Of a stretch of 56,339 bases of DNA, positions 2,575 through 51,800 are shown one piece after another. Origin of the DNA: a virus (taxonomy: Duplodnaviria > Caudoviricetes); the IMG/VR virus record IMGVR_UViG_3300037246_000311, positions 1 to 56,339 of that record. One strand, written 5' to 3'. Every line of letters begins with the position of its first letter. Within the stretch, counting starts at the first letter, position 1. The notes beneath the pieces were generated by a model that was given only the letters and a program-made list of their open reading frames with translations, ran no database searches and had not been told where the DNA came from. The translations under genes and the position numbers were made by a program.

Positions 2575-3464
2575 CATATCTCATCCCCCAACAGCCAGCA
2601 AGCGGTGGCGTCACACTCAGCAGCTCGTGGAGATTCAGCACGACCGTCACGGCTGCGGATCCTGGTAGCAAGACCATGCGGTACGACGATGCCGTACCAG
2701 GTGACGTCACCGAGTTGTACATCAACGACATCACCAACGAGAACGGGGATGCCGGTACGATCCTGGGCCTACTCGCTGCCGGCAACCGGATCTATGTCCA
2801 GCAGCAGGATGACGCCTCGAGGGCAACCCTGTTCGAGTTGACCGGCCCAGCAGTTGACAACACTGGCTGGTGGACGTTGCCGGTATCCGTAGTCAGTACC
2901 CTGGCGTTGCCGGCGAACAACAAAACCTGCGCGGTGATCATGAACCTGGGAGCCGGTGGTGGTGGTGGCAGCAACATCGTCAACCTGGGCGTGGAAGATC
3001 TGACCGGCGTCAACACGATTGACCTCGAGGGCTGGCAGACCGGCGATGTGGTTCAGGGATTCAGGGTGGACTACTGGGACGTCAACATGAACGGCAATGC
3101 CCAGGATCCAACCATCAGACTGTACGACAGCACTGGTGCCGCGGTGGCTGCTGGTTACAACAACTTCTGCTGCGAGATGGAGCAGGCTGCTTTCAATCAC
3201 ATCATCACTGCCGAGACTACCCGAGCCAGGATGGATGGCGCCAGTGGCCTGGGCCTGTTTCACGGATTCTTCGAGGGTCGCCTGGTCGATGATGTGCTTT
3301 TCAAGTGGACCATCACCGGCCAGTTCTATGACGACTTCGATGACAGCGTGATGTTTTGTTTCTGCGATGTTGACATCGGTGACGTCCTGCACGGCCTTCG
3401 GTTGCAGACCGCGAACGTGGGCAGCTTGACTGCCGGCTTCCTCAACACGAAGTACTGGACATGA
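2571..3464 (+). CDS. tail-associated structural protein
   Basis: ATGA overlap with the upstream stop; beta-rich, Gly linker; lies between two fibre genes. Confidence 0.55.
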   Translation: MTYLIPQQPASGGVTLSSSWRFSTTVTAADPGSKTMRYDDAVPGDVTELYINDITNENGDAGTILGLLAAGNRIYVQQQDDASRATLFELTGPAVDNTGWWTLPVSVVSTLALPANNKTCAVIMNLGAGGGGGSNIVNLGVEDLTGVNTIDLEGWQTGDVVQGFRVDYWDVNMNGNAQDPTIRLYDSTGAAVAAGYNNFCCEMEQAAFNHIITAETTRARMDGASGLGLFHGFFEGRLVDDVLFKWTITGQFYDDFDDSVMFCFCDVDIGDVLHGLRLQTANVGSLTAGFLNTKYWT

Positions 3465-6400
3465 CTACCAGCCAGCAATCCAGATTAGGATCCTCACCTG
3501 AAGAGGGGATGAAGGCGCCAGTCGTCGCGATCTCTTCTGGCCAGGAGACACTCTTCGGCATCGGCCAATCGATTGCCGGCATAGTGATCGCTGACATGGA
3601 TCGCGTGGCCATCAACGCCCAGACCGACCCGACCGAGAACGGGATCTACAACGCTCGAGGCGGCAAGGACTGGGAGAGGGCGACCGACTTCAACAACCCC
3701 GACGATGTCGAGAACGGGCAGCTGTTGTCGGATGGCAACACCTCCGCGGTCTACTCGATCATCGCTCCGGATCCCTGGAACCCAGGCGTTGACGTTGTGA
3801 ACTTCGGCCTGCTGCTGTCGCCTGTCGGATTCTTCTGGGGCGCCATCACTGGGACCATCTCCAACCAGGCAGACCTGCAGATCGAACTCGACGCGAAGTC
3901 TGATGTGGGCCACGGTCATGTCGAAGCTGACATCTCAGATCTCCAGGCGTACATCCTTGACGCTGCAGGATCCATCGCATCGGACGGTGAGTTCTACGCC
4001 AGGCGTAATGCTGACTGGGAAGTCATCGACTTCAGTGTCTTCGCGCCAGCTGTCCACGGCCACGTTGAAGCAGACATCAGTGATCTCGGCGCCTACCTAC
4101 TCGACGCTGCAGGATCTATCGCGAACGACAACCAACTGTGGGCCAGGGCGAACGGCGCCTGGCAGGCATTCTCGACTTCCTCCGGTACAACCGGCGAGAT
4201 CATTGCCTGGCCAGACGCGGATGTGCCGCAGAATTTTCTGGACTGCAACGGCCAGTTGCTCAACGCTGTCACCTTCGCGGATCTGTTCGCGGTGCTCGGT
4301 TACAAGTACGGTGGATCCGGATCCAACTTCAACGTGCCAGATCTGCGCGGCCAGTTCATCCGCGGCACGGCCAATGGTAGTGGCCAGGATCCTGACCGGC
4401 TGGCGAGGACTGACCGCGGCGATGGAGCAACGGGTGACCTGGTAGGTACCAAGCAATCCTACGAGCTGCAGCTGCACGGCCACACTGTGCCGTTCAAGTT
4501 TGTTGGCTCGACTGAAGGTGGTGGCGGTGACTTGGAAGTCAGGGCGCAGAACACCCCGACCAGCAACACAGGTGGCAGCGAAACCCGTCCGCGCAACATC
4601 AACATGAACTACATCATCCGCTACACAGGTGGTGGATCCGGAATCACCCAGCCTCCGAGCATCGAGGTCCAGGACGATGGCGTCAACCTGACTACCGCGG
4701 TGCAGCTGCTGAACTTCATCGGCTTCAATCTGGAGCAGCCGATCCTTGACCAGATCAACATCTCGTTTGGAGCATCGGTCAACAACGCAACCTACTGCCC
4801 GAACTACGCCTTCAACTTTATCGACACCACTTCCTGGAGCATTATCGGGTTTGATGCAACCAACCTGTTTAGCGTGGGCAGGCGCCTGCGGTTTGTCGAT
4901 GGTGCGTCCAACTACTTCGGCACCATTCTCAGCTCTGCCTTCGGGGCTGATACCACCATGAACATGTCGATGGAGTCAGGCGATGTACTGACCTCCACCA
5001 TCACTGAGGTTTGCCTGGTAAACGGTGGAGTTGCCTGGCAACCAATCAGCCAGGACCCTTTCGGGGGAACCGCGATCCGAGGCATCGAGACCGGCTCCAT
5101 CGGTGTCACGCAATACTGGGTCATTTGTGGTGATGCTGGGAAGGTTGCTTTCAGTACCGATGCTGGGTTGACCTGGACCGTAGCCACCACTGGCACATCC
5201 GAGAATCTCAATGACGTTGCTTACAACCGAGATGATGAATCGTTCCTGGTTGTTGGTAACACCGCGGTCTTGCTGCACAGCACCGATGGCGAGAACTTTG
5301 CCTTGGACACCTCCTCGATCCCTGCCCTGCCCGAGTTTATCTCTGGCCAAGCGGACATCTACTCGTGCATGTACGACCGTGGGGGTCAGGGTTACCGTGT
5401 GCAGTGGGCGATGTCCGATGTCGCACAGACGGGCAACGCTTACACTACGGATGACACTGCGACCTGGGATTCAACGCCGAACATTGGCACAAAAGTGAAC
5501 GTGGGTGAGGCGAAGATCGGGGCCATCAAGAGCGGTCTCGCTGATACCGATCTCGGGATGTTTTACCAACAGAACATCGACCTCAATCAGTTTGGGATTA
5601 TCCCTGATGAAACAGGGTCCTCGTTTGTTAACGTGTCCAGCCAGGCTGCGGTCAGAGGCTGCAGGTCATTCGTTGATCAGAACGGTTCTACTGTCAGGAT
5701 ATTCGTTGGCCGCGCTGACGGGGAGATCTTCCACAACACCTCGCTTGCGGATGACGTTACGTTTGGATCCAGTGGCATCAATGCTTTTGTGGAATCGCTT
5801 TCGCTTGAGCGGATGATCGGGGTCGCGGATGATGGCAAGATCGGGTTCTGCGACCAGGCCAACTACACTGCCAACGATGCATGGCAGCTGGTCCAGAACG
5901 GCAGCAACCCGCTGGCCAGCTTCACTGATGTAATGTGGAACGAGGTCGATGGCATGTACGTTGCGGTCAATGACCAGGGGCAGATCCTGCGCTCAACTAA
6001 CGGACTCGACACCTTGCCGCCACCAGCTCCGTTCGTGGGCTGGACTGCCATTGCTCAAGATCCATTCAGTGGCGGCAACATCCAGCACATCGCGACCGGC
6101 GTGATCGGTGGTACTGAGTACTGGGTCATTGCTGGCAGCACCTTGATCTTCACCAGCGTCGATGCCGGCGTCACCTGGGTCTCCAGGACATCCGGTGTCA
6201 GTGGATCCATCACTACGTTGAAGTACGACAACACGAACGAGGCCTTCATCGCTGGCTGCTCGAACGGTGACTTCACCAGGACAACTAATGGCACGACCTG
6301 GGTAGCGGACACCACCACGGTCCAGGCAATCCCTGGCCTCACCGGCAGCGGTCGGTTCAATGGCATGGTCTGGAGTCCAGGCGCGGCCTTGTGGTCCGTC

Positions 6401-7000
6401 TTCATGGAGTTCAATCTCGCCACAACGGGGAGCCTGACTGCTAACGCTGACATGACTGTCTGGGCGCAAGCGGATTTGACCACCAATGCCACCGGCAGTG
6501 GACCGGACAACACCATGGTGTACGATGGATTGATTGGTGGCCGAACCATCTACGCTGGCCATGCCATCTCCTACGTCTACTACTCCGATCCCACTGACAA
6601 TAGCCCAATCAGTCTCAACAACATGAGCGAACCCGTCACTGCCGCGTTTTCCAAGTTAGGCACACTGGGTGACATCCAGGATCTGTTCATCGGTGACAAT
6701 GTTGGCGACATCGAGTTGATGTCCTCGACCACTGTGAGAGCGGTCAATGATGGCGCACTGAATGGTCCGGTCAACGCCTTCTCGTACTCCAGTGTGGCTG
6801 ATCGGATGATCGCTGTCGGTAATGCCGGCGAGATCAAGACCCAGTCAGCAGCAGACCTCGAGACCGTTGGCACCTGGCGCGATGTCACGACTCCGTTTGG
6901 TGGTAATATCAACGATGTCGATTACAATGTCAGCGACGATATTTTCATTTGCGTTTGCGCCGATGGCGTGATCGCCAGATCAGTGGACGGCATCTCATGA
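3461..7000 (+). CDS. tail fibre protein 2 (collar domain plus two Asp-box/BNR beta-propeller repeats)
   Basis: N-terminal domain paralogous to 880..2574; collar motif GEIIAW..P..FL.CNG...LFAVLGYKYG..F.VPDLRGQF..ETRPRN; Asp-boxes STDAGLTW and SVDAGVTW. Confidence 0.85.
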   Translation: MTTSQQSRLGSSPEEGMKAPVVAISSGQETLFGIGQSIAGIVIADMDRVAINAQTDPTENGIYNARGGKDWERATDFNNPDDVENGQLLSDGNTSAVYSIIAPDPWNPGVDVVNFGLLLSPVGFFWGAITGTISNQADLQIELDAKSDVGHGHVEADISDLQAYILDAAGSIASDGEFYARRNADWEVIDFSVFAPAVHGHVEADISDLGAYLLDAAGSIANDNQLWARANGAWQAFSTSSGTTGEIIAWPDADVPQNFLDCNGQLLNAVTFADLFAVLGYKYGGSGSNFNVPDLRGQFIRGTANGSGQDPDRLARTDRGDGATGDLVGTKQSYELQLHGHTVPFKFVGSTEGGGGDLEVRAQNTPTSNTGGSETRPRNINMNYIIRYTGGGSGITQPPSIEVQDDGVNLTTAVQLLNFIGFNLEQPILDQINISFGASVNNATYCPNYAFNFIDTTSWSIIGFDATNLFSVGRRLRFVDGASNYFGTILSSAFGADTTMNMSMESGDVLTSTITEVCLVNGGVAWQPISQDPFGGTAIRGIETGSIGVTQYWVICGDAGKVAFSTDAGLTWTVATTGTSENLNDVAYNRDDESFLVVGNTAVLLHSTDGENFALDTSSIPALPEFISGQADIYSCMYDRGGQGYRVQWAMSDVAQTGNAYTTDDTATWDSTPNIGTKVNVGEAKIGAIKSGLADTDLGMFYQQNIDLNQFGIIPDETGSSFVNVSSQAAVRGCRSFVDQNGSTVRIFVGRADGEIFHNTSLADDVTFGSSGINAFVESLSLERMIGVADDGKIGFCDQANYTANDAWQLVQNGSNPLASFTDVMWNEVDGMYVAVNDQGQILRSTNGLDTLPPPAPFVGWTAIAQDPFSGGNIQHIATGVIGGTEYWVIAGSTLIFTSVDAGVTWVSRTSGVSGSITTLKYDNTNEAFIAGCSNGDFTRTTNGTTWVADTTTVQAIPGLTGSGRFNGMVWSPGAALWSVFMEFNLATTGSLTANADMTVWAQADLTTNATGSGPDNTMVYDGLIGGRTIYAGHAISYVYYSDPTDNSPISLNNMSEPVTAAFSKLGTLGDIQDLFIGDNVGDIELMSSTTVRAVNDGALNGPVNAFSYSSVADRMIAVGNAGEIKTQSAADLETVGTWRDVTTPFGGNINDVDYNVSDDIFICVCADGVIARSVDGIS

Positions 7001-11856: not shown

Positions 11857-12638
11857 TTGTTGGCCTCCGCATTCTTATCGACAGCTGCCTTCGCTGCCAG
11901 GAGGGCGTGGACCGGCTTGTACTGATCGACCTTCAGATCAGCCAGGGTCTCGACCTTGAACAGCACGAGCAGCTTCTTGGTATCAGCACCGACCTTCGCG
12001 ATCTTGGTGGTGAGACTCTTCAGCTGGTTGGTGCTGATGTTGGCAACTACAGGGCCGGCGTTGCGGCCATCGTCGGCATCATCTGCCTTGGTGGCCAGGC
12101 CTGCGAGTGCCTCGAAGGTGATGCGCTTCAGATACGAGACCGTAGACTTCACGGCCTGGATGGAGTTCTTGCCACCGCTCGGATCCGGAAGTGCCGACAG
12201 CGATGTCTGCTCACTGTGGCCAGTGGCATGCGTGATGAAGCAGGTGACTTCGATCAGGTTACCTTCCAGGATCTTGGTCTTCCAGCTGGTCTTCATCTGC
12301 GCCTGGGTCATGGCCTCCTGGACCTTGATCAGTGAGCCGGCCAGGCTGGTGAATCCATACTCGGTTGGCGCCTTGCCATCCTTGCCTGGGTAGTTGACCC
12401 AGCTGTCGTAGGTCAGCGGCGGGACCAGGGATCCGAACACGGCCATCGCAGTGTGGTAATTCTTCCTGGCTTCGTTGGCCTCGTAGGCCAGCTGGATCTC
12501 GAACATCTTCTCGAGCTTATCAACCGGCAGGTCGGGCAGTTGCATCAGCGCCTGGATCATGGCGCCTGGGTGGACCGACATCTCCGTGCCGGCAGGGGTA
12601 GGTAGCGTGACTACCTTGGTTTTAGCTTTCGCTGTCAT
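11853..12638 (-). CDS. erf: ERF-family ssDNA annealing protein
   Basis: H..GH.E...PD.SGGKN.IQA..STVSY.KR motif plus DDADDG; adjacent to the exonuclease. Confidence 0.88.
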   Translation of the reverse strand: MTAKAKTKVVTLPTPAGTEMSVHPGAMIQALMQLPDLPVDKLEKMFEIQLAYEANEARKNYHTAMAVFGSLVPPLTYDSWVNYPGKDGKAPTEYGFTSLAGSLIKVQEAMTQAQMKTSWKTKILEGNLIEVTCFITHATGHSEQTSLSALPDPSGGKNSIQAVKSTVSYLKRITFEALAGLATKADDADDGRNAGPVVANISTNQLKSLTTKIAKVGADTKKLLVLFKVETLADLKVDQYKPVHALLAAKAAVDKNAEANK

Positions 12639-12710
12639 GGTCTTTCTCCTGGGTGTAATAAAAGTCGATCGCGCAATAGAGCACGACCAACAGTGATGTG
12701 ATAAAGAGGT

Positions 12711-12956
12711 TCATTCGAGGCGCTCCCAGTACTCGCAGTCCTTGTTCAGGTCTTCGGGGGTTGGCTCGACGTAGGGTGCGTTGGTAGGTGGTTCCCAGTC
12801 ATCACCGTACTTGGTCGGCTGGGTGGTGTCGTCGTCGTCGTCGTTCTCGTGATCCTTCTCGAGCTGCTTGTCCTTCCAGCAATCGTAGGCGTAGTCGCCA
12901 TCGTCCATGGGATCATCTTCAGGTGGATCTTCCCAGCTGTCTGGTCGCTTAGTCAT
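12711..12956 (-). CDS. small highly acidic protein
   Basis: Conserved leader/RBS upstream; very Asp/Glu-rich. Confidence 0.6.
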   Translation of the reverse strand: MTKRPDSWEDPPEDDPMDDGDYAYDCWKDKQLEKDHENDDDDDTTQPTKYGDDWEPPTNAPYVEPTPEDLNKDCEYWERLE

Positions 12957-12959
12957 ATT

Positions 12960-13250
12960 TCAATCTCCGGTGTCAACAAGTGAATAGTACCCTACTGGCT
13001 GGCTCACTGGGTGAGCCTTCATACGCTTGAACCAGTAGTCTGAATGGATGTGGCCGAGCAGCCTGATGGTCTCGCTGCTGATAACGTCACGGCCTTTCTC
13101 GTAGCCGAGGGTTGCCAGGTACAGCGGGATGGTCACCATCTGCCGGCTCGAGGGCTTGACCTGGTCCAGCATCCACATGCCGAAGTGAGTATCGACCATC
13201 GGGATTTCGCTGGGGTTCAGGTTGCTGACTTGCTCAGTGAAGTTTTTCAT
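12960..13250 (-). CDS. hypothetical protein
   Basis: Start MKNFTEQ with GAGG RBS. Confidence 0.55.
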   Translation of the reverse strand: MKNFTEQVSNLNPSEIPMVDTHFGMWMLDQVKPSSRQMVTIPLYLATLGYEKGRDVISSETIRLLGHIHSDYWFKRMKAHPVSQPVGYYSLVDTGD

Positions 13251-13413
13251 CGTCGCCTCGCTTGTGGGTGATGATGCCTCTCTCGAAGGCACCGCGGACA
13301 ATCTGCTCCTGCCTGGCGCGGGACAACTTGAACCACTTGAGGCAGGTCTTCGGGTGGAGCGCACCGGCCAGGACCGCGATGGCCTCGTCCATGTCGTATG
13401 GTTTGGTGTTCAT
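13234..13413 (-). CDS. hypothetical protein
   Basis: Start MNTKPY, GGAG RBS, coupled to the upstream stop. Confidence 0.5.
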   Translation of the reverse strand: MNTKPYDMDEAIAVLAGALHPKTCLKWFKLSRARQEQIVRGAFERGIITHKRGDDEKLH

Positions 13414-13583
13414 GCGTGTATGTCTCCGTTGTCGATCAGGTCCATCGCGGTGCGACCGAACCATCCTTGAAGAGTCCAGGCGATGCCGGTGCTAACCAGC
13501 AACTGCCAGGCCTCGAGATACTGCTCGTGATCCTCGGCGTCCTCGACGCCTTCAGCGATCATGGTGGCTGTGAATATATTCAT
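13410..13583 (-). CDS. small conserved phage early protein
   Basis: AWQ.L..TG.AW.LQGWFGR.A motif common in phage early regions. Confidence 0.6.
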   Translation of the reverse strand: MNIFTATMIAEGVEDAEDHEQYLEAWQLLVSTGIAWTLQGWFGRTAMDLIDNGDIHA

Positions 13584-13786
13584 ATCGAATCGAACTCCGC
13601 GGCAAGGCCCAGCAGCTTGTCTTCTTTGCTGAACTGGTGAGTGGCCATCCAGTCGGCGCATGCTTCACGCGCCTCCTCCATGGTGTGGACTTTACAGATG
13701 TTGCGCTTGCGACCAGCGTCAGGCTCGAGGCCGTTGGGCCAGTCGGCATTGCGCGACCACCAGGTGCGTGAGAATACTTGGTACAT
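13580..13786 (-). CDS. hypothetical protein
   Basis: Coupled ORF (TAATG and ATGA junctions). Confidence 0.55.
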   Translation of the reverse strand: MYQVFSRTWWSRNADWPNGLEPDAGRKRNICKVHTMEEAREACADWMATHQFSKEDKLLGLAAEFDSI

Positions 13787-14163
13787 TAGAGTTCACCTTC
13801 AGTTTGGTTGTCGAGCCAGGTGCGGACAACATCCATGGCGTCAGCGTCGATGCTCCAGGCAGCGACACTACCTTCCAGGTTGAGGCCGATGCCCATCTCT
13901 GCTTCCATGCCCTTGTTGCAGACGTACTCGTCACGGCCCAGCAGGGTGGTGACGTAGTAGCGGCTAACGAACTGGCCGCGGGGTCCGAACTTGGCTATGT
14001 GGGAAAGGTCGTAGAACTCGACCAGGGGGCTGTCGTCTTCGCGCTTGTCTTCACCGTGGGTGAGACAGTCGTCGCGACCGTAGCGATCGCCAATGCGCAC
14101 GATGCGCACGTTGAAGTGGCGACCTTCTTCGTTGGTAATTCTCATTGAGTTGTCAGTAGTCAT
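13786..14163 (-). CDS. conserved phage early protein
   Basis: FNVRIV..GD.YG..DCL.H, VEFYD, GQFVSRYY..TL motifs; first gene after the promoter at 14191. Confidence 0.65.
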   Translation of the reverse strand: MTTDNSMRITNEEGRHFNVRIVRIGDRYGRDDCLTHGEDKREDDSPLVEFYDLSHIAKFGPRGQFVSRYYVTTLLGRDEYVCNKGMEAEMGIGLNLEGSVAAWSIDADAMDVVRTWLDNQTEGEL

Positions 14164-23041: not shown

Positions 23042-23428
23042 ATGACAGAACTCGAGCTGACGTATCCACCGTCAGTCAACAACTACTACACCAAGTGGTG
23101 CCAGTACGTTGCGAAGGCCAGCAAGCACGTTGTGAAAGTAGCCGTTGGCGATCGCGGGATGGCGTATCGAGCTGAAGTTCGCCGGTACAAACTGGTCACC
23201 CTCAAGAATCCACAACCACTCAAGGGCCGGCTCTCGATGGAGTGCCAGCTCTGGGCGCCCGACCGAAGGAAGCAGCACTACAACATCGACAACTTTCTGA
23301 AGTGCCTGCTGGACGCCATCACCTACGCTGGAATCTGGATCGATGATGACCAGGTCGATGTGCTCCTGATCCACAAGCGAGGCGTCGAGGCGCCAGGCCG
23401 AATCATCGTTACACTGAGGGAAATATAA
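23042..23428 (+). CDS. rusA: RusA-family Holliday junction resolvase
   Basis: L.YPPSVN, PDRR..NIDN.LK.LLDA...IW.DD.QV. Confidence 0.9.
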   Translation: MTELELTYPPSVNNYYTKWCQYVAKASKHVVKVAVGDRGMAYRAEVRRYKLVTLKNPQPLKGRLSMECQLWAPDRRKQHYNIDNFLKCLLDAITYAGIWIDDDQVDVLLIHKRGVEAPGRIIVTLREI

Positions 23429-23979
23429 TGGGAGATCGATTCGATGAAGAGCAATGCCCGATGTGCGGGTTCCATGAACTACACTCGGTCAGCTTCAGAT
23501 CTGCCGGTGATCCACTGGTCACCATCATTGGCTTCTGGCCCATCGAAGAAGACCAGCACAGGAACTATGACGACCGGCGAATATCCAGGTGCCACTACCG
23601 AACGGTATGCAATCACGCGCACTGGGATCTACAAATAATCGAAGAGCCTGGGCAGGCGATGATACCGAAGGGCGTACCCGTCATCGGTGTTGACGAGCCG
23701 TACAAACTCAATCCCCAGGGACCAGTGCATGTGAGCAAAGATCCACCCGAGCACATCCATGAGCTGGAGAATTTCATGCACCCAGCATCGGCCACTTACA
23801 TCCTGGGCAACACGCACTACCAGAGGCCGAGCGATCACTTCGACTGTGACCAGCTGGTCGGCATCATAATGGATGACCTGGACGCCGCGGAGTATTCGCC
23901 GTTCTATGGGAACCAGATGGCCGCGATGATCTGGTACGATCGAAAGCTGAAGGGATCCAGCTACCTGGATATTGAGTGA
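23428..23979 (+). CDS. SPOUT (SpoU/TrmH-like) methyltransferase-like protein
   Basis: VPVIGV.E, L.NF.HP..A.YI.G, CD.LV.I, A.MIWYDR..K resemble the SpoU core. Confidence 0.5.
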   Translation: MGDRFDEEQCPMCGFHELHSVSFRSAGDPLVTIIGFWPIEEDQHRNYDDRRISRCHYRTVCNHAHWDLQIIEEPGQAMIPKGVPVIGVDEPYKLNPQGPVHVSKDPPEHIHELENFMHPASATYILGNTHYQRPSDHFDCDQLVGIIMDDLDAAEYSPFYGNQMAAMIWYDRKLKGSSYLDIE

Positions 23980-24215
23980 TGGATCCTGAAGACAGATTTG
24001 TTACGCTGAAGATTGTCAACGACAAGCTGGCAGCTCAACCGATCATGCACGAGGTGGTCCAGCGGTGGGAAGATGTCGCCAACATCATGATCAAAAAGTT
24101 CATGGCCTCGAAGGAGTTCGACAGGTACGTCCAGGATGTCTTCACCCTGGGTACAGGCCGCATCGACATTGGTAAATGGGTACTGGAGAATTTTGATGAT
24201 ACTAACAAGACGTAG
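23976..24215 (+). CDS. hypothetical protein
   Basis: Coupled ORF. Confidence 0.55.
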   Translation: MMDPEDRFVTLKIVNDKLAAQPIMHEVVQRWEDVANIMIKKFMASKEFDRYVQDVFTLGTGRIDIGKWVLENFDDTNKT

Positions 24216-24750
24216 GTTTTTGCAGAGCGTAGCAGCCAGCACCCTGTTCGTGGCGCCGGCAATCGTCAGGTCCGAAAGCCTGATGAAGATCTTCATACCA
24301 GGCCAGCGCGTCAAGTTCCGTGTGCCAGATCTCCGCGGACATTTCGCAACCAACCCCGAGCCGATGAACCTCCCTGCCCAGCGTGAGATGACAGCGACCG
24401 AGGTCCTCGAGCGCCGTGAGGAAGTCAAGACAACCTGGGCGAAGCGTTGGAACGATCACATGCATGAGGACAACGCCAGGCAGATGATGCAGGCCGCGGC
24501 AACGAAAGCGGTCAACGAGAAGATCGACGCCGAAATTTACAGCCAGCTCCAGGGACACGAGATCACTGGCGTGTGGCTCGATGAATCCGATGTGGTCAAG
24601 AACCAGGTCGCCTACCACATTGAACAGAACACCGGCCAGGTCCAGGCATTCACCGATCACCCGATGGGTTGGATCCCCTGTGATGGCCGTGAGCTGTCAG
24701 CGATCGAGCACCCGAATCTGTACATGGTCCTGGGCAACAAGTATGGATAA
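24196..24750 (+). CDS. Tat-leader mosaic protein of collar, portal, capsid and terminase motifs (candidate immune decoy)
   Basis: GGAG RBS at 24185; TRRRFL leader; segments match this genome's own tail fibre, portal, capsid and TerL. Confidence 0.75.
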   Translation: MILTRRRFLQSVAASTLFVAPAIVRSESLMKIFIPGQRVKFRVPDLRGHFATNPEPMNLPAQREMTATEVLERREEVKTTWAKRWNDHMHEDNARQMMQAAATKAVNEKIDAEIYSQLQGHEITGVWLDESDVVKNQVAYHIEQNTGQVQAFTDHPMGWIPCDGRELSAIEHPNLYMVLGNKYG

Positions 24751-24934
24751 CGTCATCCCATTCCCCAGGCGCAAGCGAATCATCGTTGATGACTTCCGAC
24801 TCACGCCTGACCAGGCAGTAGCTGTCGGTAATTGGGCAGAGCAAACCCTCGAGGTCATTGAAGCCGAGATCATGCAAGACGACCTGGACGATGCGATCCG
24901 TAGAGTCCTCCGACAAGAGGGCCTGATCGAATGA
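24743..24934 (+). CDS. hypothetical protein
   Basis: Start MDNVIPFPRR overlapping the upstream stop. Confidence 0.55.
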   Translation: MDNVIPFPRRKRIIVDDFRLTPDQAVAVGNWAEQTLEVIEAEIMQDDLDDAIRRVLRQEGLIE

Positions 24935-25236
24935 CAGATCCTCGAGGACCAACCTGGCGAATAACAGCAAGCGGTCACCGCTGTGGCTGGCCTGGCTGCG
25001 AGGAGTTCATCGCTGGCCGGCTATGGGGATGTCGTGACCACTGGCTCCTGGTGCCTGTCAAATTGCGGGACGCATACATGGAAGCTGGATCCGGACAACA
25101 GAAGATCGGGGTCAGCATCCAGGAGAAGCCATCAGTCATGGCGGTCGATCAGGACATCCAGCACTGGGTGCGCCATCAACACAGCTCGGCTCATCTCCTG
25201 GGCATCACGAGCTACCCGCCTGATGATGCGGCCTGA
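24931..25236 (+). CDS. small Cys/His zinc-binding phage protein
   Basis: HRC.WPGC.....LWGC..HW..VP..LR motif. Confidence 0.65.
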   Translation: MTDPRGPTWRITASGHRCGWPGCEEFIAGRLWGCRDHWLLVPVKLRDAYMEAGSGQQKIGVSIQEKPSVMAVDQDIQHWVRHQHSSAHLLGITSYPPDDAA

Positions 25237-25853
25237 TGGTTAAGAAAAAGCCAGCGAAGAAGATAGTCACGCCGGCTGCGAAGAAGAGAGCGCAGCTGAT
25301 GAGGGCTGAACGTGCCGATGGGATCAAGCGCGAGAAGTTCTGCCAGCACTATGTCCTGACCCAGAACGCGACCGAATCCTACCAGGTGTCACACGGCACA
25401 AAGGCCCGACCGATCCAGGACAACACCGCGGCCACAGCTGGTTGGCGCCTGCTGAGAAATAGTGAGATCCACAGCAGGCTGAAGGAGCTGCGGATCCATG
25501 GCCACGAGCACCTGATGGTCAGCTTCGAGGAAACCCTGCAGGAGATCGGTGGCCTGGCCATGTTCGATCCCAAGGATATGTTCGATGACAATGGCCGAGT
25601 ACTACCGATCCACGAGATGCCGATCGTCGCCAGGAAGATGATCCACGAGTTCAAGCAGTACACCACCGAGAGCACCAACGACGAGGGCGATGTCACCGCC
25701 ACCAGGTACGAGACCGAGATCAAGTACGGCAAGGACAAGGGCAAGTACCTGGACATGGTCATGAAGTTTTACAACGCCTACCAGGAGCACCAGAAGGCTG
25801 GCAGTGGCATCATCGTCGTGCAACAATACTGCGCCCAGGATGCCAACTTGTAG
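25236..25853 (+). CDS. terS: terminase small subunit
   Basis: EKFC..Y....NAT..Y, A...G.RLLRN..I; directly upstream of TerL. Confidence 0.85.
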   Translation: MVKKKPAKKIVTPAAKKRAQLMRAERADGIKREKFCQHYVLTQNATESYQVSHGTKARPIQDNTAATAGWRLLRNSEIHSRLKELRIHGHEHLMVSFEETLQEIGGLAMFDPKDMFDDNGRVLPIHEMPIVARKMIHEFKQYTTESTNDEGDVTATRYETEIKYGKDKGKYLDMVMKFYNAYQEHQKAGSGIIVVQQYCAQDANL

Positions 25854-25859
25854 GTAGAC

Positions 25860-27356
25860 ATGAGTTTCAGTCCAGCTGCTGATGCACCCCTGAAGTTCCA
25901 GTACAAACTAACGTCCGACCAGATGTCGGCCATGAATAACCTGTCCGCTGACGCCACGCACTGTGCGCTCGGTGGGGGATCCCGCAGCGGCAAAACCTTC
26001 CTGATCGTCCGAGCCATCTTCATGAGGGCCTGCGGCGTACCCAACAGCCGGCACCTGATCTGCCGCTACCGCTTCAACGTCTGCAAGACAGCCATCGGCC
26101 TCGACACCGTGCCGAAGGTGGTCAGGCTGTGCTTCCCCGAGCTGCCACCTGCCGATGACATGCTCGACAAGACCGACTGGTACTACAAGCTGCCGAACGG
26201 ATCCGAGGTATGGATCTCTGGCCTGGACGAGGAGAAGCGCGTCGAGAAGGTCCTGGGCCACGAGTATGCGTCGATGTTCTTCAACGAGTGCAGCCAGATT
26301 CCCTGGAAGTCGGTCGAGACTGCGCTGACCAGGCTGGCCCAGAAGACCAGCTGGGACGAGTACGACAAGGACGATGTGCTCATTGCCAGGCACAAGGGCC
26401 TGAAGCTGAAGGCCTACTACGATCTAAACCCGCCGAGCAAGCGACACTGGTCCTACATTCGATTCATCTCGAAGAAGGATCCGGAGCCACCGCATCGAGT
26501 CCTGCGCAACGAGTTCGATTACAACTATCTCACAATGAATCCGCATGGCAACGCGGCGAACCTGGATCCCAAGTACCTGTCGCAACTCGAGGCCCTGGGG
26601 GAGGCGGCGAAGAAACGCTTTCTCTATGGTCAGTGGGCAGATGATACAGATGGATCCCTCTGGACCGAGGAGACCCTGTCGCAGAACAGAGTGCTCGGCC
26701 AAGAAGGGCAGAGGCTACCTCAGTGGCTTCGTGTTGTTGTTGCCGTGGATCCCAGTGGTACCAAGGGCCATGAGGACAAGCGATCAGACGAAGTCGGGAT
26801 CGTTGTCGTCGCTCTTGGTACCGATGGGCATGGGTATCTGATCGAGGATCTATCGATCAAGGCACCGCCCGAAGTCTGGGGCAAGATCGTTGCCGATGCA
26901 TACGACAGGCACAGCGCCGATCGGATTGTTGGCGAGGTCAACTATGGTGGCGACATGGTACGCGCCGTCATCCAGGCCCAGGACCCCAAGCTGCCATTCA
27001 CTGCAGTCACAGCGAGTCGAGGCAAGGAGGTTCGAGCCGAGCCGATCAGCGCCATCTATGACCAGGGCAACATCCATCACATTGGCTACTTCCCTGAACT
27101 CGAGGAGCAGCTGATGGCCATGTTGCAATCTGGCTACGTTGGGCTGAGATCACCCGACCGAGCTGACGCCATGATCTGGGGATTCACTGAGCTGTTCCCG
27201 AAGATGGTGAAGAAGGAGCACGGCCCGAGCATCCCGCCGAAGATCAACCTGGCACCCAGGTCAGCCAGGAGCCACAAGTACGCGCAGAATCAGAACGTCA
27301 AAGTCAACACATCAGGAGGGGGGGCAACCCGCCGCCGAATCCGGAGAAAGATATGA
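25860..27356 (+). CDS. terL: terminase large subunit
   Basis: Walker A GGSRSGKT, Walker B variant MFFNE, LNPP, nuclease VAVDPS, GKEVRAEP, SPDRADA. Confidence 0.95.
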   Translation: MSFSPAADAPLKFQYKLTSDQMSAMNNLSADATHCALGGGSRSGKTFLIVRAIFMRACGVPNSRHLICRYRFNVCKTAIGLDTVPKVVRLCFPELPPADDMLDKTDWYYKLPNGSEVWISGLDEEKRVEKVLGHEYASMFFNECSQIPWKSVETALTRLAQKTSWDEYDKDDVLIARHKGLKLKAYYDLNPPSKRHWSYIRFISKKDPEPPHRVLRNEFDYNYLTMNPHGNAANLDPKYLSQLEALGEAAKKRFLYGQWADDTDGSLWTEETLSQNRVLGQEGQRLPQWLRVVVAVDPSGTKGHEDKRSDEVGIVVVALGTDGHGYLIEDLSIKAPPEVWGKIVADAYDRHSADRIVGEVNYGGDMVRAVIQAQDPKLPFTAVTASRGKEVRAEPISAIYDQGNIHHIGYFPELEEQLMAMLQSGYVGLRSPDRADAMIWGFTELFPKMVKKEHGPSIPPKINLAPRSARSHKYAQNQNVKVNTSGGGATRRRIRRKI

Positions 27357-27559: not shown

Positions 27560-27813
27560 CCGAAGCAGAGAAGGATCCAGGCATCGATGACATCGTGAAG
27601 ATGAACATCCCGCCCGAGGATAAGGTCCACTTCATCGCTGACCTGGCCAAGCACCGCGGCAAGTGCATGGACCATGACGCCATCGAGATCAAAAAGGCCG
27701 TCACCATCATCAAGCAGCAGATCAGGCAGATCGAGATGCTACGGCACAAGCTCAAGGTCCGATCTCCCTGGGACAACTTCAAGATCTGGATGAACGGCTG
27801 GGCAAACTCATGA
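27556..27813 (+). CDS. hypothetical protein
   Basis: Coupled ORF. Confidence 0.55.
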   Translation: MTEAEKDPGIDDIVKMNIPPEDKVHFIADLAKHRGKCMDHDAIEIKKAVTIIKQQIRQIEMLRHKLKVRSPWDNFKIWMNGWANS

Positions 27814-28394
27814 AGTGGTTCCGCAAGATTGGCGACACCTTCGATCCTGATTCAGTCGTGCTCTCAGAAGTCCGCGACGAGCTGTACCGACAGCCACTGT
27901 TCTGGGGCAAATCGCCCAGGGTAACCTTCCCAGGATCTCCGCACCGCGACACCGAGGACATCGTGCTTCGAGGGCCGGTCGGGATCCACAGCAAGTCACT
28001 CCAGGAACTGCATGTCGAGATTGCCTGCGAGGACTACCCAGCCTCCGAGCTGATGCCGGCGACATTGAGGATGGCCAACAACCTGGCGTACCTGCTCTCG
28101 AGTCCGGAGATGCAGCACCTGGATTCACCGCTGCGCCTGGGCCGCGTGATCCTGACCAAGCTGCCACCAGGTAAGTCGATTCACCCGCACAAGGACGAGG
28201 GCGCCGTGCCTGAGTTCTATCGACGCTGCCACCTGGTGGTAGAGGGCGGCGACGAGAATGTGTTCCTGATTGCCGACGAGGTCCAGGTCATGCAGTCAGG
28301 CGAGATGTGGGAGTGTGATGTCCGAGAGCTGCACACGGTGGTCAACCTGATGGAAGACGCGAGGGTCCACCTGATCGTGGACATCGAGCGATGA
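27810..28394 (+). CDS. aspartyl/asparaginyl beta-hydroxylase-like 2OG-Fe(II) oxygenase
   Basis: L.PG..I.PHKD, R.HL, GEMW..D...H.VVN, RVHLIVD. Confidence 0.85.
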   Translation: MKWFRKIGDTFDPDSVVLSEVRDELYRQPLFWGKSPRVTFPGSPHRDTEDIVLRGPVGIHSKSLQELHVEIACEDYPASELMPATLRMANNLAYLLSSPEMQHLDSPLRLGRVILTKLPPGKSIHPHKDEGAVPEFYRRCHLVVEGGDENVFLIADEVQVMQSGEMWECDVRELHTVVNLMEDARVHLIVDIER

Positions 28395-34452: not shown

Positions 34453-35298
34453 ATGGCTGATACAGCCTTCCAAGAAATGTTTCGTCAAGAAGTTGTCATG
34501 GGGTTTGAAAAGGGCCAGAGTCTGGCTCGTCGGACCACTACCGTAGAGACCGAAATCAATGGCAACGAAGCCACATTTTTGGTTGCTGACAGCGGTGGGG
34601 CAACGGCAACAACCCGTGGCGTCAACGGCGACATTCCTACACGCCCCGATAACCTGAACCAGTTCACCGCGCTGCTCCAAGAGTGGCACGATGTTCCGGA
34701 ACGCACGAGATTCAACATCTATGCGTCCCAGGGTGATGGTCGTCGGATCATGCAAGAGACCTCGATGAAGGTCATCAACAGAAAGATCGATGATGACATC
34801 TACACCGAACTCAACACCGCCTCCACTACCTGGACAGGTGGCGCAGCAGCAGCGACCGTAGCACTGGTCTCGGATGCTCGGACAATCCTTGCGAATAACT
34901 TCGCTCTGGATGAAGAGCCTTTCGCGATCATCACGCCTGCCTTCTGTGGCCAACTGATGGGCTTCCGTCAATTCACTTCAAGCGACTTCGTGAACCTGAA
35001 AGGGTTCGAGAATGTCAGCAAGTCTCGTGCCTTCAACTGGTACGGGGTGAACTGGATTGTGGACGCCGGTTTGCCAGGCACTGGTACCGCTACCGCGGAT
35101 TGCTTCATGCATGCGAAGGCCGCGATCGGCCATGCGTGTGATATTGAAAACATCCGCACCGAGGTAGGGTACGACCGCAAGAACGACAAGTCGTGGGCGC
35201 GGGCAACAACCTTCATGGGTAGTAAGCTGCTGCAGGACATCGGCGTGGTCAAGATGACACACGATGATACAGCTGCCTTCCCAGTGAATACAACGTAA
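34453..35298 (+). CDS. major capsid protein
   Basis: AFQ..FRQE...GFE...S..R, NRKIDD.I; AGGAG RBS; position after the scaffold. Confidence 0.88.
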   Translation: MADTAFQEMFRQEVVMGFEKGQSLARRTTTVETEINGNEATFLVADSGGATATTRGVNGDIPTRPDNLNQFTALLQEWHDVPERTRFNIYASQGDGRRIMQETSMKVINRKIDDDIYTELNTASTTWTGGAAAATVALVSDARTILANNFALDEEPFAIITPAFCGQLMGFRQFTSSDFVNLKGFENVSKSRAFNWYGVNWIVDAGLPGTGTATADCFMHAKAAIGHACDIENIRTEVGYDRKNDKSWARATTFMGSKLLQDIGVVKMTHDDTAAFPVNTT

Positions 35299-48833: not shown

Positions 48834-51800
48834 ATGCCATTAGACGCCTGCATCGCCAAGGTTGGAACACTGTCTGAAAACGACATTGCCTTCCTGCGCA
48901 AGGAGATCCTCGACGGCAGCACCGACGAGCAGGCGATTGCCAACCTCGAGGTCCTGGTCGAGCAGGAGGCCGAGGCCCTGGTCGCCAGGATCGAGGAAGC
49001 GGGTGGCACCATCGAGCGCGAGGCGCCACCTGTGGACCGGCCTGACGCTGCCGAAGCGGCATCGCTCGAGAACAACATCAAGCTGGCCGAGGCTACCAAG
49101 TACAACACCAACCGCGAACTGAAGGAGGTGATGCAGGCCAACGTGCTCCAGGCCTACCTGGAATCGCAGGGCTTCGAGGACACTGGCACTCTCGAGGAGC
49201 GCACCGCGGACAACGCCGCGCACCTGGCTGCAGTCGGTACCGCCGATGCAATCTTCGCGCTGCAGGACAACGCTGACGCTGTCGGCTGGTACGACAGGAC
49301 AGTGAGCAAGGCGCTCGAGGTCCTGGGTACCATCCACCCCGAGATCCTGACAGATCCCAACGCCAGGTTTGCATTCACCTTTGCCCTGGCTGTGACCAGC
49401 AACGGCATGAAGGTGGACAACAATTTCAAGATGGCTGAAGCCGCGTATCGTGCCTACAAGAAGGATGGCAAGATGCCGAACAACATCGGTGAGGGTACCG
49501 CTGGCGGCAAGATGAATGAGCACATGGACCTGTTCAATAAACTGGTTGATGAGATGGGCCTCGAGAACTTTGGCGCGATGTTCCAGAGCCAGTTCACTGT
49601 TGCCCAGCTGAAGCGGATGGACCTGGACCCAGGAGGTGAGCTGGTGGACACCGTAGTGTATGGTGCCGCGGTCCTCGGCCCCAAGATCGGCAACGGCTTC
49701 TTCATGAATCTCAACGGCGAGTACGACCAGCTGACCATGGACCGCTGGCTGATGCGGACCTGGGGCCGGTGGACTGGATCCCTGATCAAGGATCGACCTG
49801 ACCTGGTCGAGGCGAAGGTCGCTGACATGGAGAAGAAGCTGACCAGGATGTCGAAGGCCTCGAAGGCCTGGGGGTTTTTCCAGAAGACCCTCGACATGGA
49901 TCTCACCAACCATGGCAAGCCTGGTGGTCCGACCTACATCGAGATCGCACAGCGGATCCAGCTGAAGTCAGTCAACCCCGATTCCAGGTCCGACATGAAC
50001 CGCACTGTCATCGGTAGTCAGCTGCGCAAGCTGGGCAATGGCCTGGCCAAAGATGTGGACGGCCAGAAGGAGGCGCCACAGAACGGAACCGAGCGCAACT
50101 GGATCAGGGGAGTGTTCACTACCATCCTGGAAAACATGCATAACCAGGGCTATACTGATATGACGATGGCCGATCTCCAGGCCTTGTTGTGGTACCCAGA
50201 GAAGCGGCTCTACGACAAGGCAAAATCTGAAGAGGATGTGGCCAACGGTTACGACCTGGATGAGGCGCCCGACTACGCGAACGCTGCCGCTAAACTGGCA
50301 AAGGCGCGGGGCATCAAACCTGCCGCAATCAAGTCGGCACAACAACGAGCGGAGCAGCAACATGCGGATCAAGTCAGCGCAGGACGAGCAGCAGGAGAAC
50401 TTCCAGCACAAGCCGCGGAAGGGCAACCGGCAGCTGCTCGAGGCCTTGCTCGAAAAGAACGCAGCGCGTTCCTTAGAAGGAATATCCTCGTCCCAAATCG
50501 GGTTAGTCGAAGCGATAATGAGAAAGCTAAAAGTTACACGGCTCCGAGCCGAGGAACTCTTGGAAATGTACTCGGCGTAATACACAAACCCAGGCAGGAT
50601 TACTCCAACGAGTTAGCTGCAGCTGAAGTCACACCGATGACCATGGTGGAGATGGAAGCCACACCTGAGAACGCGGACCTCTTCGCGCAATCCATTCAGA
50701 ATATCAAGGACGCTCACCCCGAGGGTGCCGCGGTCTATGTGTACCCGACTGACGAGTACGCCGGCATGAAGCTGTTCGTGAACGAGGACCAGACTGCCGG
50801 CTTCGCCGTGAAGGCAGATGGCGACATCGTCAGCGTCTTCGCCGCACCGAATCGTGACGAGCCTGGTCGCGTCTACTCGATGCTGGCCCTGGCCGTCGAA
50901 CGCGCTGGCGGTACCAAGCTCGACGCATTCGACACCATCCTGCCCCAGGTCTACGCGATGGCCGGCTTCGTAGAAGTTGGTCGGGATCCCTGGGTAGAAA
51001 AATTCAAGCCAGCTGACTGGGACAAGGCGACCTTCATCGAGTACAACAACGGTGAGCCTGACATCGTCTACATGGAATATCAGAATGCTGTGCCTGAGTA
51101 CTTCGCGCAGTCTGATGTCAGCAAGGACGAGGCCCTGATCGAGATCGACAATGCCCTGGAAGATGGGTCCATCAAAATCACCCAGGCCGAGGCTGAAGCC
51201 CTGGTCGAAATGGGATTCACTCACCCCGATGTCCGGAGGACTGAAGATGACAAAGCTACTGAAGCAGCTGCTCGATCCCCAGAGGAAGCAGCCCAAGCCC
51301 GAGAAGATTACGCCGCAGCGACGAGCCGAACTGACAGCGAAGTATCTGCCGAGTTCGCAAGAGCGAAACGTGGCGAAGCTGTTACATTCCTCCACCGAAG
51401 CCATGTAGCTTTCTCGCACTTCGATGACGGGTACCTGGGCGGCAACACTGGCCGGCCTACCGCGCACCTGGGACACTTCCTGACTGCAATGTCTTACGAT
51501 GCGCCTGAGTTTGGCGACAACCTCGTTACCGTTACTTTCCAATTCAAGAAGCCCCTGGTCATCTCGTCCGAAGAGTTCGTCGCGATGGGCGACCGATCTA
51601 TCCAGGCAAACAAGCAGGACCGCCTCGACCTGATGGCCCAGGGCTATGACGGCATCCTGGTCGATGGCCTGGAGTGGGCGATCGCATTCGAGGGTAAAAA
51701 CCTGACGCTGGCGCACGACACATCAGGCCTCGAGTGGATGGAGGCTGAAGTGGAGAAGGGCGAGGGCTTCCTGGAACAGCCTGACCGCGGACGCTACTAC

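Follow-up and report, generated by a model that had tools for sequence, protein, structure and literature searches.

The hallmarks of a twin-arginine (Tat) signal peptide are a moderately hydrophobic h-region after the RR motif, followed by a basic c-region and a small-x-small peptidase site. Class I Tat signals (PF10518, TIGR01409; SufI-type signals, for example) resemble the phage leader analyzed here in their S/T-R-R-x-F-L motif, h-region, basic c-region and small-x-small site. The ordinary Tat signals of unrelated proteins have only the motif in common with one another; in the leader family, ~35-45 residues are near-invariant, including at least 10 past the predicted cut. The internal proteins of phage T4 offer a second parallel: they combine a conserved N-terminal capsid-targeting sequence, which directs them into the procapsid and is cleaved off by the protease of the head, with hypervariable bodies. 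A short conserved N-terminal address on fast-changing small cargo at an accessory locus is common to both cases, which differ in that the present leader has Tat hallmarks and its cargo apparently copies virion proteins.

The Gol region of the T4 capsid protein gp23 is read by the host in Lit exclusion. Avs7 and Dsr1 are described as capsid-sensing defence proteins in the available part of a recent preprint (bioRxiv 10.64898/2026.01.04.697583). In these systems, host immunity reads short parts or monomers of capsid proteins, and this is a type of partner for which a capsid mimic could compete. The difference is that real capsid parts trigger defence there, whereas the present case, known from sequence alone, is a separate gene specifying a diverged copy behind an export leader. 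For enzyme subunits it is established that Tat can translocate a signal-less partner together with the signal-bearing one (hitchhiking; available text of PMC13673990). The hitchhiker substrates treated there (hydrogenases, arsenite oxidase) likewise involve a small signal-bearing protein that could carry a partner; unlike them, the protein described below has no cofactor-binding domain, and the leader genes lack a conserved partner gene at their side. Finally, the collar domain (PF07484) of tail fibres and of small bacterial proteins of the 'microcystin-dependent protein' type is matched above threshold by residues 151-184 of the protein (one homologue bears that very annotation in JGI). Unlike in PF07484, the missing end of the domain (F-x-V-P-D-L-R-G-x-F) is found ~100 residues upstream, with a capsid-like segment in between.

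The gene and its twin-arginine leader

The gene comes from an uncultured marine phage and has an accessory location between replication and packaging genes in the window (the whole stretch of DNA analyzed, 56,339 nt). The features in its immediate surroundings are:

23976..24215, + strand: upstream 79-aa open reading frame (ORF), no family match
24185..24189, + strand: Shine-Dalgarno-like GGAGA, 6 nt 5' of the ATG at 24196
24196..24750, + strand: Tat-type-leader gene, an ORF of 184 codons plus stop with 13 full-length homologues
24196..24300, + strand: conserved leader module, aa 1-35, delimited by leader profile and alignments (TIGR01409 12.6 bits, under cut-off)
24743..24934, + strand: downstream 63-aa ORF, no family match

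The 184-aa product of ORF 24196..24750 (+) has the N-terminus MILTRRRFLQSVAASTLFVAPAIVRSESLMKI. The stop codon of the upstream ORF (24213-24215) lies inside the leader gene, the overlap amounting to the first 20 nt of the latter, and the ATG of the downstream ORF (24743) overlaps the leader gene's stop. The 13 full-length homologues (44-77% identity) are alike at both ends, and no frameshifts or stops are seen in their alignment. These common ends, together with the ribosome site and the overlapping starts and stops of the neighbours, show that the ORF is a genuine gene, conserved among phages. In the stored annotation (P0001, 176 aa) the protein apparently starts at codon 9 (TTG) and would lose the RR; homologues beginning MILTRR speak for the ATG at 24196. 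An internal start at the invariant Met30 was considered and rejected, a Shine-Dalgarno-like word preceding Met30 in 1 of 43 leaders and the true start in 26 of 43. A lysis-cassette assignment, prompted by the place of the gene before the terminase, was also discarded (no lysis family in the five ORFs of 23428-25236). Scanning for promoters and terminators round the leader gene yielded nothing exceeding shuffles.

A reading made from the letters of the sequence had proposed that the N-terminus fits the Tat consensus, with a hydrophobic region following the RR motif; both elements are confirmed, and the peptide quoted in that reading is the exact translation of 24196-24291 (the first 32 codons). 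The n-region contains T-R-R-R-F-L (aa 4-9), in which T4-R5-R6-R7-F8-L9 satisfies (S/T)RRxFL; an uncharged h-region (aa 8-24), R25 and a conserved ESLMKIFIP follow. The h-region, F8-V24, consists of 17 uncharged residues with a mean Kyte-Doolittle value of 1.77 and one proline, and the c-region provides the basic R25 and two predicted signal-peptidase sites of small-x-small type, A20-P21-A22 and V24-R25-S26.

It is homology that places this leader above chance, since a loose Tat-like pattern by itself occurs at chance level (5 candidate N-termini, at 3 distinct places, of 2391 in the window; shuffle mean 2.8, maximum 8 in 30 shuffles). The leader is conserved in the 13 full-length homologues, and a profile of it has a single match in the window, at the 24196 gene (E 1.7e-23; the profile includes the window copy). 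The TIGR01409 score of the window leader compares with a curated cut-off of 16.7 bits, which is passed by two of nine other leaders (P0002, 17.8; P0011, 21.0) and missed by seven, one of them without any match. PF10518 is absent from the window protein at E<=0.1 and is matched by 63 of 149 family members at E<=0.01. Among PDB entries, the bacterial 'putative exported protein' 3qsl_A matches at E 0.16, and its own RR leader contains ...LAPAIVRAQ; a Protein Atlas look-up of the leader was uninformative (scores <=0.80). No TatA-type gene is encoded in any of five phage records searched, so that the host Tat system would be needed. By its sequence the leader is of Tat type; its export is a prediction.

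A family of leader-tagged mini-proteins

The sequence-only reading had also suggested that TRRxFL...APAIV leaders on other small phage proteins might mark a family with swappable cargo. This is now strongly supported: such leaders are carried by thousands of small phage proteins with unrelated cargo. A 36-position leader profile retrieves 4266 protein clusters at E<=1e-3 from 1.84 billion representatives searched, and the best 150 of the 4266 clusters are all 66-250 aa in length. The survey of cargo behind homologous leaders, which that reading had advocated, finds it hypervariable: 149 proteins fall into 109 cargo clusters, 94 of them singletons. Pfam assigns 8 capsid-family matches, 1 portal, 7 laminin-G, 1 fn3 and 1 collar match within the 149 members. 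Viral contigs carrying the leader number 54. Of 26 candidate long proteins (323-2000 aa), none bears it at E<=0.001 (weak evidence).

In 44 related leaders the first R is invariant, and the second R, the F and the L are present in 42, 38 and 36, respectively; RR, A-P-A-I-V, A and M vary little or not at all. Third codon positions of these leaders are saturated (entropy ~1.6-2.0 bits, near-maximal). Saturated third positions combined with invariant residues imply selection at the protein level, and the same entropy disposes of a DNA or RNA element in place of a protein motif. Twelve of 18 leader residues of the window protein are shared identically with an unrelated family member. The conserved stretch APAIV(R/K)A(E/D)(S/N)(L/I)M(K/R)I runs past the predicted cleavage site; conservation so far in excess of the needs of a signal peptide hints at an extra or different role of the leader. 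The family is very large, old and strongly selected.

Two accounts of this excess conservation have to be weighed. The leader might be merely Tat-descended and serve now for docking to some conserved protein of the host or of the phage (a signal-binding chaperone, for example), the whole protein acting in the cytoplasm on capsid or fibre assembly, its own or a competitor's. That would suit a leader whose sequence and length are both conserved beyond what export requires, as well as a cargo whose originals act in the cytoplasm, and general chaperones do bind Tat leaders (SlyD is the case given in the part of the source available). This account is nonetheless unlikely: thousands of clusters retain all four Tat hallmarks, and this would be difficult to account for if Tat played no part. 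Nor does a conserved partner gene turn up beside the leader genes in 42 records (the commonest neighbour family is present in 11 of the 42, leader ORFs and antisense frames excluded), which tells against a partner encoded by the phage, though not against one supplied by the host. (The leader genes of other phages adjoin replication, terminase or portal genes.)

The second account, to which a similarly low probability is given, holds that the leader stays uncut, either as a membrane tether like that of the Rieske-type class III Tat substrates or by stalling in the translocase and blocking it, and that the mimic remains at the membrane. Uncleaved Tat signals exist, and conservation through and past the predicted cleavage site fits retention of all 35-45 residues in the working protein. 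Substrates with exposed hydrophobic regions can halt translocation late, with growth defects (PMC13673990, in the text available), but the present cargo has no hydrophobic patch with which to stall transport. As a stable anchor, 17 uncharged residues with a proline are short or borderline, and most family members have, in V-(R/K)-A, a good site of signal-peptidase type.

The family is one of uncultured phages. When 50,697 records of cultured phages are searched by tblastn, the window protein finds 2 matches, both to its collar part only, and another family member (P0021) finds one weak match (E 0.3). The nearest cultured relative by terminase, a Synechococcus phage, is without the leader gene. 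Species genomes contribute one confirmed locus, on a contig of a metagenome-assembled genome, and this is an undercount because only one peptide pattern was scanned. A full-text literature search returned no paper describing a leader-tagged mini-protein family.

The mosaic cargo

As read from its sequence, the window protein is made of two modules, a twin-arginine-type signal peptide (aa 1-35) and a hydrophilic mosaic (aa 36-184) in which a capsid-like segment is set between two collar parts in swapped order. The pieces and their counterparts in the same phage are:

24301..24345, + strand: N-terminal collar piece, aa 36-50, GQRVKFRVPDLRGHF, the last part of the collar, corresponding to own fibre aa 285-299
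24307..24561, + strand: capsid-like segment, aa 38-122, similar to aa 39-124 of the major capsid protein of this phage
24631..24747, + strand: C-terminal collar piece, aa 146-184, the first two thirds of the collar domain, matching own fibre aa 244-284
4190..4357, + strand: collar domain in canonical order, aa 244-299 of the 1179-aa tail-fibre gene 3461..7000
34453..35298, + strand: major capsid protein gene, 281 aa (phrog_3437, E 1.6e-52; PF19821, E 8.8e-25)

The description of the product as a mosaic is thus borne out, with pieces that resemble the capsid protein and the tail-fibre collar of the same phage. The C-terminal piece scores 41.1 bits with Pfam Collar (PF07484) over aa 151-184 (gathering threshold 24; E 1.8e-10), contains positions 7-40 of the 57 in the profile, and ends with a stop directly after GNKYG; aa 146-184 match the own-fibre segment 244-284 at E 3e-6. 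Residues 36-50 are identical to own fibre aa 285-299 at 9 of 15 positions (E 0.010), and P-D-L-R is invariant within the subfamily of 13 homologues. The two parts of the fibre collar occurring in swapped order implies that the collar domain is circularly permuted; the whole domain in canonical order is absent from the window protein. An AlphaFold2 monomer model of the protein is poor (mean pLDDT 48.4) and gives no support for the fold of a permuted collar. (The collar match of aa 36-50 is short, 15 residues, and overlaps a stretch that hhalign gives to the capsid protein.)

Gene 34453..35298 resembles the middle piece and may be its source or model. BLASTP of the capsid-like segment against the phage's own capsid protein gives E 3e-7, with 24% identity over 113 columns, and hhalign gives a probability of 84.5% (E 7e-6). 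In a control, none of 9 neighbouring small ORFs matches any protein of the same phage. (The capsid similarity is weak, at 24-29% identity.) Profile searches of the PDB detect no solved relative of the cargo. The own capsid protein aligns to a solved phage capsid over residues 132-235 only, so that its copied N-terminal part is not placeable on a structure.

Judging by such matches, cargo resembling the own capsid protein is also present in other lineages, whose capsid proteins are of different families. Of the 11 leader proteins in 10 whole records, 4 match an ORF of their own phage at E<1e-3 and 7 have no own-genome match; shuffles (20 each) give none. The own-phage targets with a nameable family are capsid proteins, belonging to different Pfam families. 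In L052, the cargo and the N-terminus of the P22-type coat protein encoded next to it share 46% identity over 67 aa (E 5e-20).

A mosaic make-up and an accessory position are what recombination debris, that is, a functionless chance fusion of gene fragments, would also present, and homology blocks in related strains start exactly at the start codon and stop within the cargo. Such an origin without function is nevertheless very improbable: 13 homologues, with identities as low as 44%, preserve the cargo and its invariant motifs and end at the same stop, and the leader is under strong selection at the protein level.

The collar matches raise a different possibility, that of an exported envelope protein whose collar-type cargo binds a surface or periplasmic glycan or receptor and, by masking it, guards against superinfection or keeps progeny from re-adsorbing. 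The collar, laminin-G and fn3 types of cargo within the family are binding modules typical of tail fibres, and other members (L046 and L008) carry a full collar domain in normal order directly behind the leader. The capsid-like and portal-like pieces are left unexplained by a masking function, which is improbable.

What leader and cargo may do together

The best reading, to which a probability of roughly 0.45 is assigned, is that the window protein mimics virion proteins and bears a Tat address. The leader would direct it to the cytoplasmic membrane and to the Tat translocase of the host, which is assumed to possess one. Export is probable, with a predicted cut after V-R-S (or A-P-A) releasing a mature protein that begins ESLMKI. 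The cargo suits Tat in being hydrophilic (GRAVY -0.72) and devoid of any hydrophobic stretch; according to the available text of PMC13673990, Tat accepts cargo that is small and hydrophilic or even unfolded. More tentatively, the cargo may mimic virion proteins and compete with the real capsid or fibre proteins for a binding partner, for which a host factor, a sensor or a protein of another phage are candidates. The leader would then set the place of the competition, which would be the membrane or the envelope and not the cytoplasm, the site of virion assembly. Since capsid proteins act in the cytoplasm, a periplasmic capsid mimic would be without an obvious target.

One proposal for the partner is that the protein is a bait for cytoplasmic sensors of host immunity, the leader taking a bound sensor along as a hitchhiker through Tat or holding it at the translocon and so disarming immunity. 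The hitchhiking export of host sensors is speculation, and the proposal as a whole is unlikely. The sensors are very large and oligomeric, at or beyond the known size of Tat cargo, and a copy of a trigger could equally well activate immunity. On the other side of the ledger, the gene has an accessory position between replication and packaging genes, and the cargo repertoire (capsid, portal, tail-fibre and lectin-like) overlaps with proteins reported as detected by bacterial sensors: the accessible part of bioRxiv 10.64898/2026.01.04.697583 gives capsid, portal and tail proteins as triggers. In that same portion of the source, however, the modelled sensors bind an A-domain interface, and the pieces copied here are N-terminal capsid segments. 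The precedent of a signal-less partner co-translocated by Tat also counts in favour of the bait (PMC13673990, as far as its available text extends).

A broader extension of the mimic reading is likewise unlikely: that these proteins constitute a new class of phage counter-defence or interference, mini-proteins displaying composite capsid and fibre surfaces, whose Tat address pulls their recognizers (host sensors or assembly proteins of rivals) out of the cytoplasm. The recognizers would end at the membrane or cross it, and the near-invariant leader could be thought of as a portable 'disposal tag' that is recombined with new baits.

For all its size, age and strong selection, the family did not turn up in the searches of cultured phages, so that its function is a real gap. 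No phage model system is known to show such behaviour, and the full-text search of the literature disclosed no paper describing copies of a phage's own virion parts sent to Tat. The window member is a clean example of circular permutation of a tail collar, and the leader is a ready-made, highly conserved module for export experiments. The question raised is why an export tag should be placed on pieces of capsid whose originals act in the cytoplasm. The protein lends itself directly to tests of molecular mimicry in conflicts between phage and host or among phages and, if the leader works as its sequence suggests, thousands of uncultured phages send small copies of virion parts to the Tat translocase of their hosts.

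The leader gene and its genomic setting

The peptide quoted in the sequence-only reading, MILTRRRFLQSVAASTLFVAPAIVRSESLMKI, is exactly the start of the translation of a 184-residue ORF whose ATG at 24196 is preceded by GGAGA with 6-nt spacing. The 79-aa ORF upstream ends, and the 63-aa ORF downstream begins, inside the gene, as in a compact operon; scanning for promoters and terminators around the gene gave nothing exceeding shuffles. It lies between a resolvase gene and the terminase genes.

Features of the window
3461-7000: gene of the phage's own 1179-aa fibre
23042-23428: RusA resolvase gene
24196-24750, + strand: leader gene (Tat-type leader, residues 1-35; mosaic cargo, residues 36-184)
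25236-27356: small and large terminase genes
34453-35298: gene of the phage's own 281-aa capsid protein

Metagenome contigs from two runs of another study (X3 and X4, compared at 80% likeness) align with the window from exactly 24196 and are dissimilar upstream, and the match of one X4 contig ends at 24419, within the cargo. The pattern points to breakpoints of recombination at the start of the gene and inside it, and fits exchange of the leader gene as a module.

CheckV rates the record as 100% complete. Its structural genes, of short-tailed type, encode a head-tail adaptor/portal, a major head protein, two tail tubular proteins, an internal virion protein and several fibres; a search of the window for tRNA genes found none. 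By large terminase it is closest, among cultured phages, to two Synechococcus phages of ~54 kb (48% identity), and its DNA is present in marine sediment and marine metagenome runs. The final 1.76 kb (54585-56339) resembles the initial 1.75 kb (23-1753) at 78.9% nucleotide identity. This end repeat spans the 3' end of the gene of a 2210-aa protein and the beginning of a fibre gene; over 291 aa, the fibre N-termini of the two copies share 92.8% identity. The repeat could reflect a duplication that has diverged. Alternatively, a circularly permuted assembly may have joined two strain variants at its ends, and the real genome would then measure ~54.6 kb. Residues 807-2119 of the 2210-aa protein (48834-55466) match phrog_9880, of unknown function (E 2e-169), and ORF 23-880 shows similarity to that family's C-terminal part. 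A 194-aa ORF (27810-28394) lying between the large terminase and portal genes matches the aspartyl/asparaginyl beta-hydroxylase family PF05118 (E 3e-12), which is unusual inside a packaging module. Directly before the small terminase gene, a 101-aa ORF (24931-25236) with a Cys/His-rich N-terminal part (CGWPGCEEF...WGCRDHW) matches phrog_18063, also of unknown function (E 5.2e-8).

Conservation and spread of the leader

Textbook features of a twin-arginine signal are an RR motif, an uncharged h-region, a basic residue and a small-x-small site. The window leader has a T-R-R-R-F-L motif, 17 uncharged residues of mean hydropathy 1.77, the basic residue R25, and the small-x-small sites A-P-A and V-R-S. 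A loose Tat-like pattern is by itself not above chance (5 of 2391 candidate N-termini in the window fit it, where 30 shuffles average 2.8); homology is what counts. The verdict of curated Tat models is mixed: TIGR01409 scores the window leader at 12.6 bits, below its cut-off of 16.7, and is passed by two of nine other leaders tested (one is without any match), while PF10518 is not listed for the window protein and matches 63 of 149 members of the family. The APAIVRA ending is also found in an ordinary bacterial leader: PDB entry 3qsl_A, a bacterial 'putative exported protein', has ...LAPAIVRAQ within its own RR leader (E 0.16).

What is unusual about the leader is its degree of conservation. 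A set of 44 leaders, drawn from 42 records, shows no variation at the first R, the P, the A after it, the V and the M, and almost none at the second R, the A preceding P, the I and the A following R/K; most of them keep one distance between RR and APAIV. Third codon positions at conserved sites carry about 1.6-2.0 bits of entropy (Ile and Met codons excepted), which places the constraint on protein rather than on DNA or RNA. The conserved stretch runs past the predicted cut as (E/D)(S/N)(L/I)M(K/R)(I/L/V), often with W-V-P-P, suggesting that the leader may do more than address the protein. The invariant Met was rejected as a candidate internal start: a ribosome-site word precedes it in 1 of 43 cases, versus 26 of 43 for the true start.

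A 36-position leader profile, built from the first 36-39 residues of 12 homologues, has a single match in the window, at the leader gene (E 1.7e-23, the window copy being included in the profile). Among 1.84 billion representative proteins it matches 4266 clusters at E<=1e-3, of which 75 reach E<=1e-10. Among the 4266, the best 150 are all of 66-250 aa, and the match begins at or before residue 8 in 144 and at residues 23-60 in the other six. No protein of 323-2000 aa with the leader was found, which is weak evidence. The whole window protein has 16 homologues (E<=0.001) among 48 candidates of 101-322 aa; 13 share the entire architecture, at identities down to 44% and with the same GNKYG end.

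The leader occurs at 54 IMG/VR loci (41 without near-duplicates), once in most records and twice in four; nine further whole or near-whole records have one copy (eight) or two (one). It is hardly found outside uncultured viral sequence. One peptide pattern scanned through 185,579 species genomes hit one contig of a metagenome-assembled genome, an undercount because only that pattern was used; two tblastn queries against 50,697 GenBank phages gave no match except a weak one (E 0.3) across leader and cargo residues; and the one cultured cyanophage searched lacks it. The titles, abstract starts and passages surveyed yielded no paper describing such a leader family. The 108 ORFs of at least 150 aa within 5 kb downstream of leader genes include 9 portals and about 8 large terminases, and upstream ORFs are mainly replication and methylase genes; no conserved partner gene stands beside the leader genes. 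Three family proteins (P0023, P0068 and P0104) have two tandem leader modules in one ORF. Why an exported protein would contain a second Tat leader is not obvious, and these ORFs may have arisen by gene fusion or as artefacts of assembly.

Cargo and the phage's own virion proteins

In the window protein, Pfam places a tail-collar domain at residues 151-184, covering only profile positions 7-40 of 57, where the ORF ends. Residues 146-184 resemble residues 244-284 of the phage's own fibre (E 3e-6) and residues 36-50 (GQRVKFRVPDLRGHF) resemble fibre residues 285-299 (9/15 identical, E 0.010), these E-values and the others for cargo against own proteins, here and in L037 and the whole records, being those of single comparisons or single genomes. 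The two fibre stretches are directly adjacent, so the collar parts stand in swapped order, a circular permutation; P-D-L-R is invariant throughout the subfamily. The segment between the collar parts (residues 38-122) is similar to residues 39-124 of the own capsid protein (BLASTP E 3e-7, 24% identity; hhalign of cargo against capsid protein, probability 84.5%, E 7e-6), most clearly in RQMMQAAATKAVNEKIDAEIY of the leader protein against RRIMQETSMKVINRKIDDDIY of the capsid protein. Residues 38-50 are assigned ambiguously, as the PDLRG piece and the beginning of the capsid alignment overlap there. Of nine small ORFs nearby, none has a match to an own protein (E<=0.01). The cargo, with a GRAVY of -0.72 and a net charge of -6, is hydrophilic and has no hydrophobic stretch. 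A poor AlphaFold2 monomer (pLDDT 48.4), which cannot show the fold, suggests a long helix at residues 67-118. Collar-type cargo in normal order directly follows the leader at two other loci, L046 (6017-6349, domain complete) and L008 (10001-10387), possible forerunners of the permuted form.

Across the family the cargo is hypervariable: that of 149 leader proteins falls into 109 clusters, 94 of them singletons (BLASTP E<1e-3). Pfam matches in the 149, all fragments given the sizes of the proteins, comprise eight to capsid families (PhiKZ_MCP 4, SU10_MCP 3, GP7 1), one portal, seven laminin-G, one fn3 and one collar, the window protein. Four of 11 leader proteins in 10 whole records match an ORF of their own genome at E<1e-3 (none in 20 shuffles each) and seven do not. 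The matching records are the window phage, G004 (a P22-type coat protein), G005 (an unnamed 399-aa ORF) and G009. In the last, the 62-aa cargo of leader ORF 65-484 consists of three separate pieces, stitched together, of a 480-aa ORF (12358-13797; residues 76-101, 226-245 and 446-464), itself capsid-like below the Pfam cut-off. Elsewhere, the cargo at locus L052 shares 46% identity across 67 residues with the N-terminus of the P22-type coat protein encoded next to it (E 5e-20), and the cargo at L037 contains a copy of 23 residues from a GP7-type capsid protein.

A proposed Tat-addressed mimic

From this anatomy and selection, which are seen directly, we infer a mechanism. Delivery of the protein to the host Tat translocase would be the simplest reading of the full Tat hallmarks; a TatA gene is present in none of five phage records. 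Passages of PMC13673990 describe small hydrophilic cargo, folded or unfolded, as tolerated by Tat, and both uncleaved signals and co-transport of partners as known. Its composition suggests that the cargo mimics virion proteins. What is puzzling is that capsid proteins work in the cytoplasm, whereas the leader is Tat-type. The mimic might act before targeting or in the course of it, serving as a decoy, a tether or a hitchhiker; otherwise its exported form might have an unseen target. Worded in this way, the Tat-addressed mimic ranks first, at somewhat less than even odds (about 0.45). Export of bound host sensors by hitchhiking, as the sequence-only reading proposed, would be a special case of it, one that we consider improbable.

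The copying of own capsid proteins in several lineages implies that the design arose, or was kept, with at least three capsid families, which Pfam names differently. To this the window member contributes the permuted collar and a mosaic from two sources.
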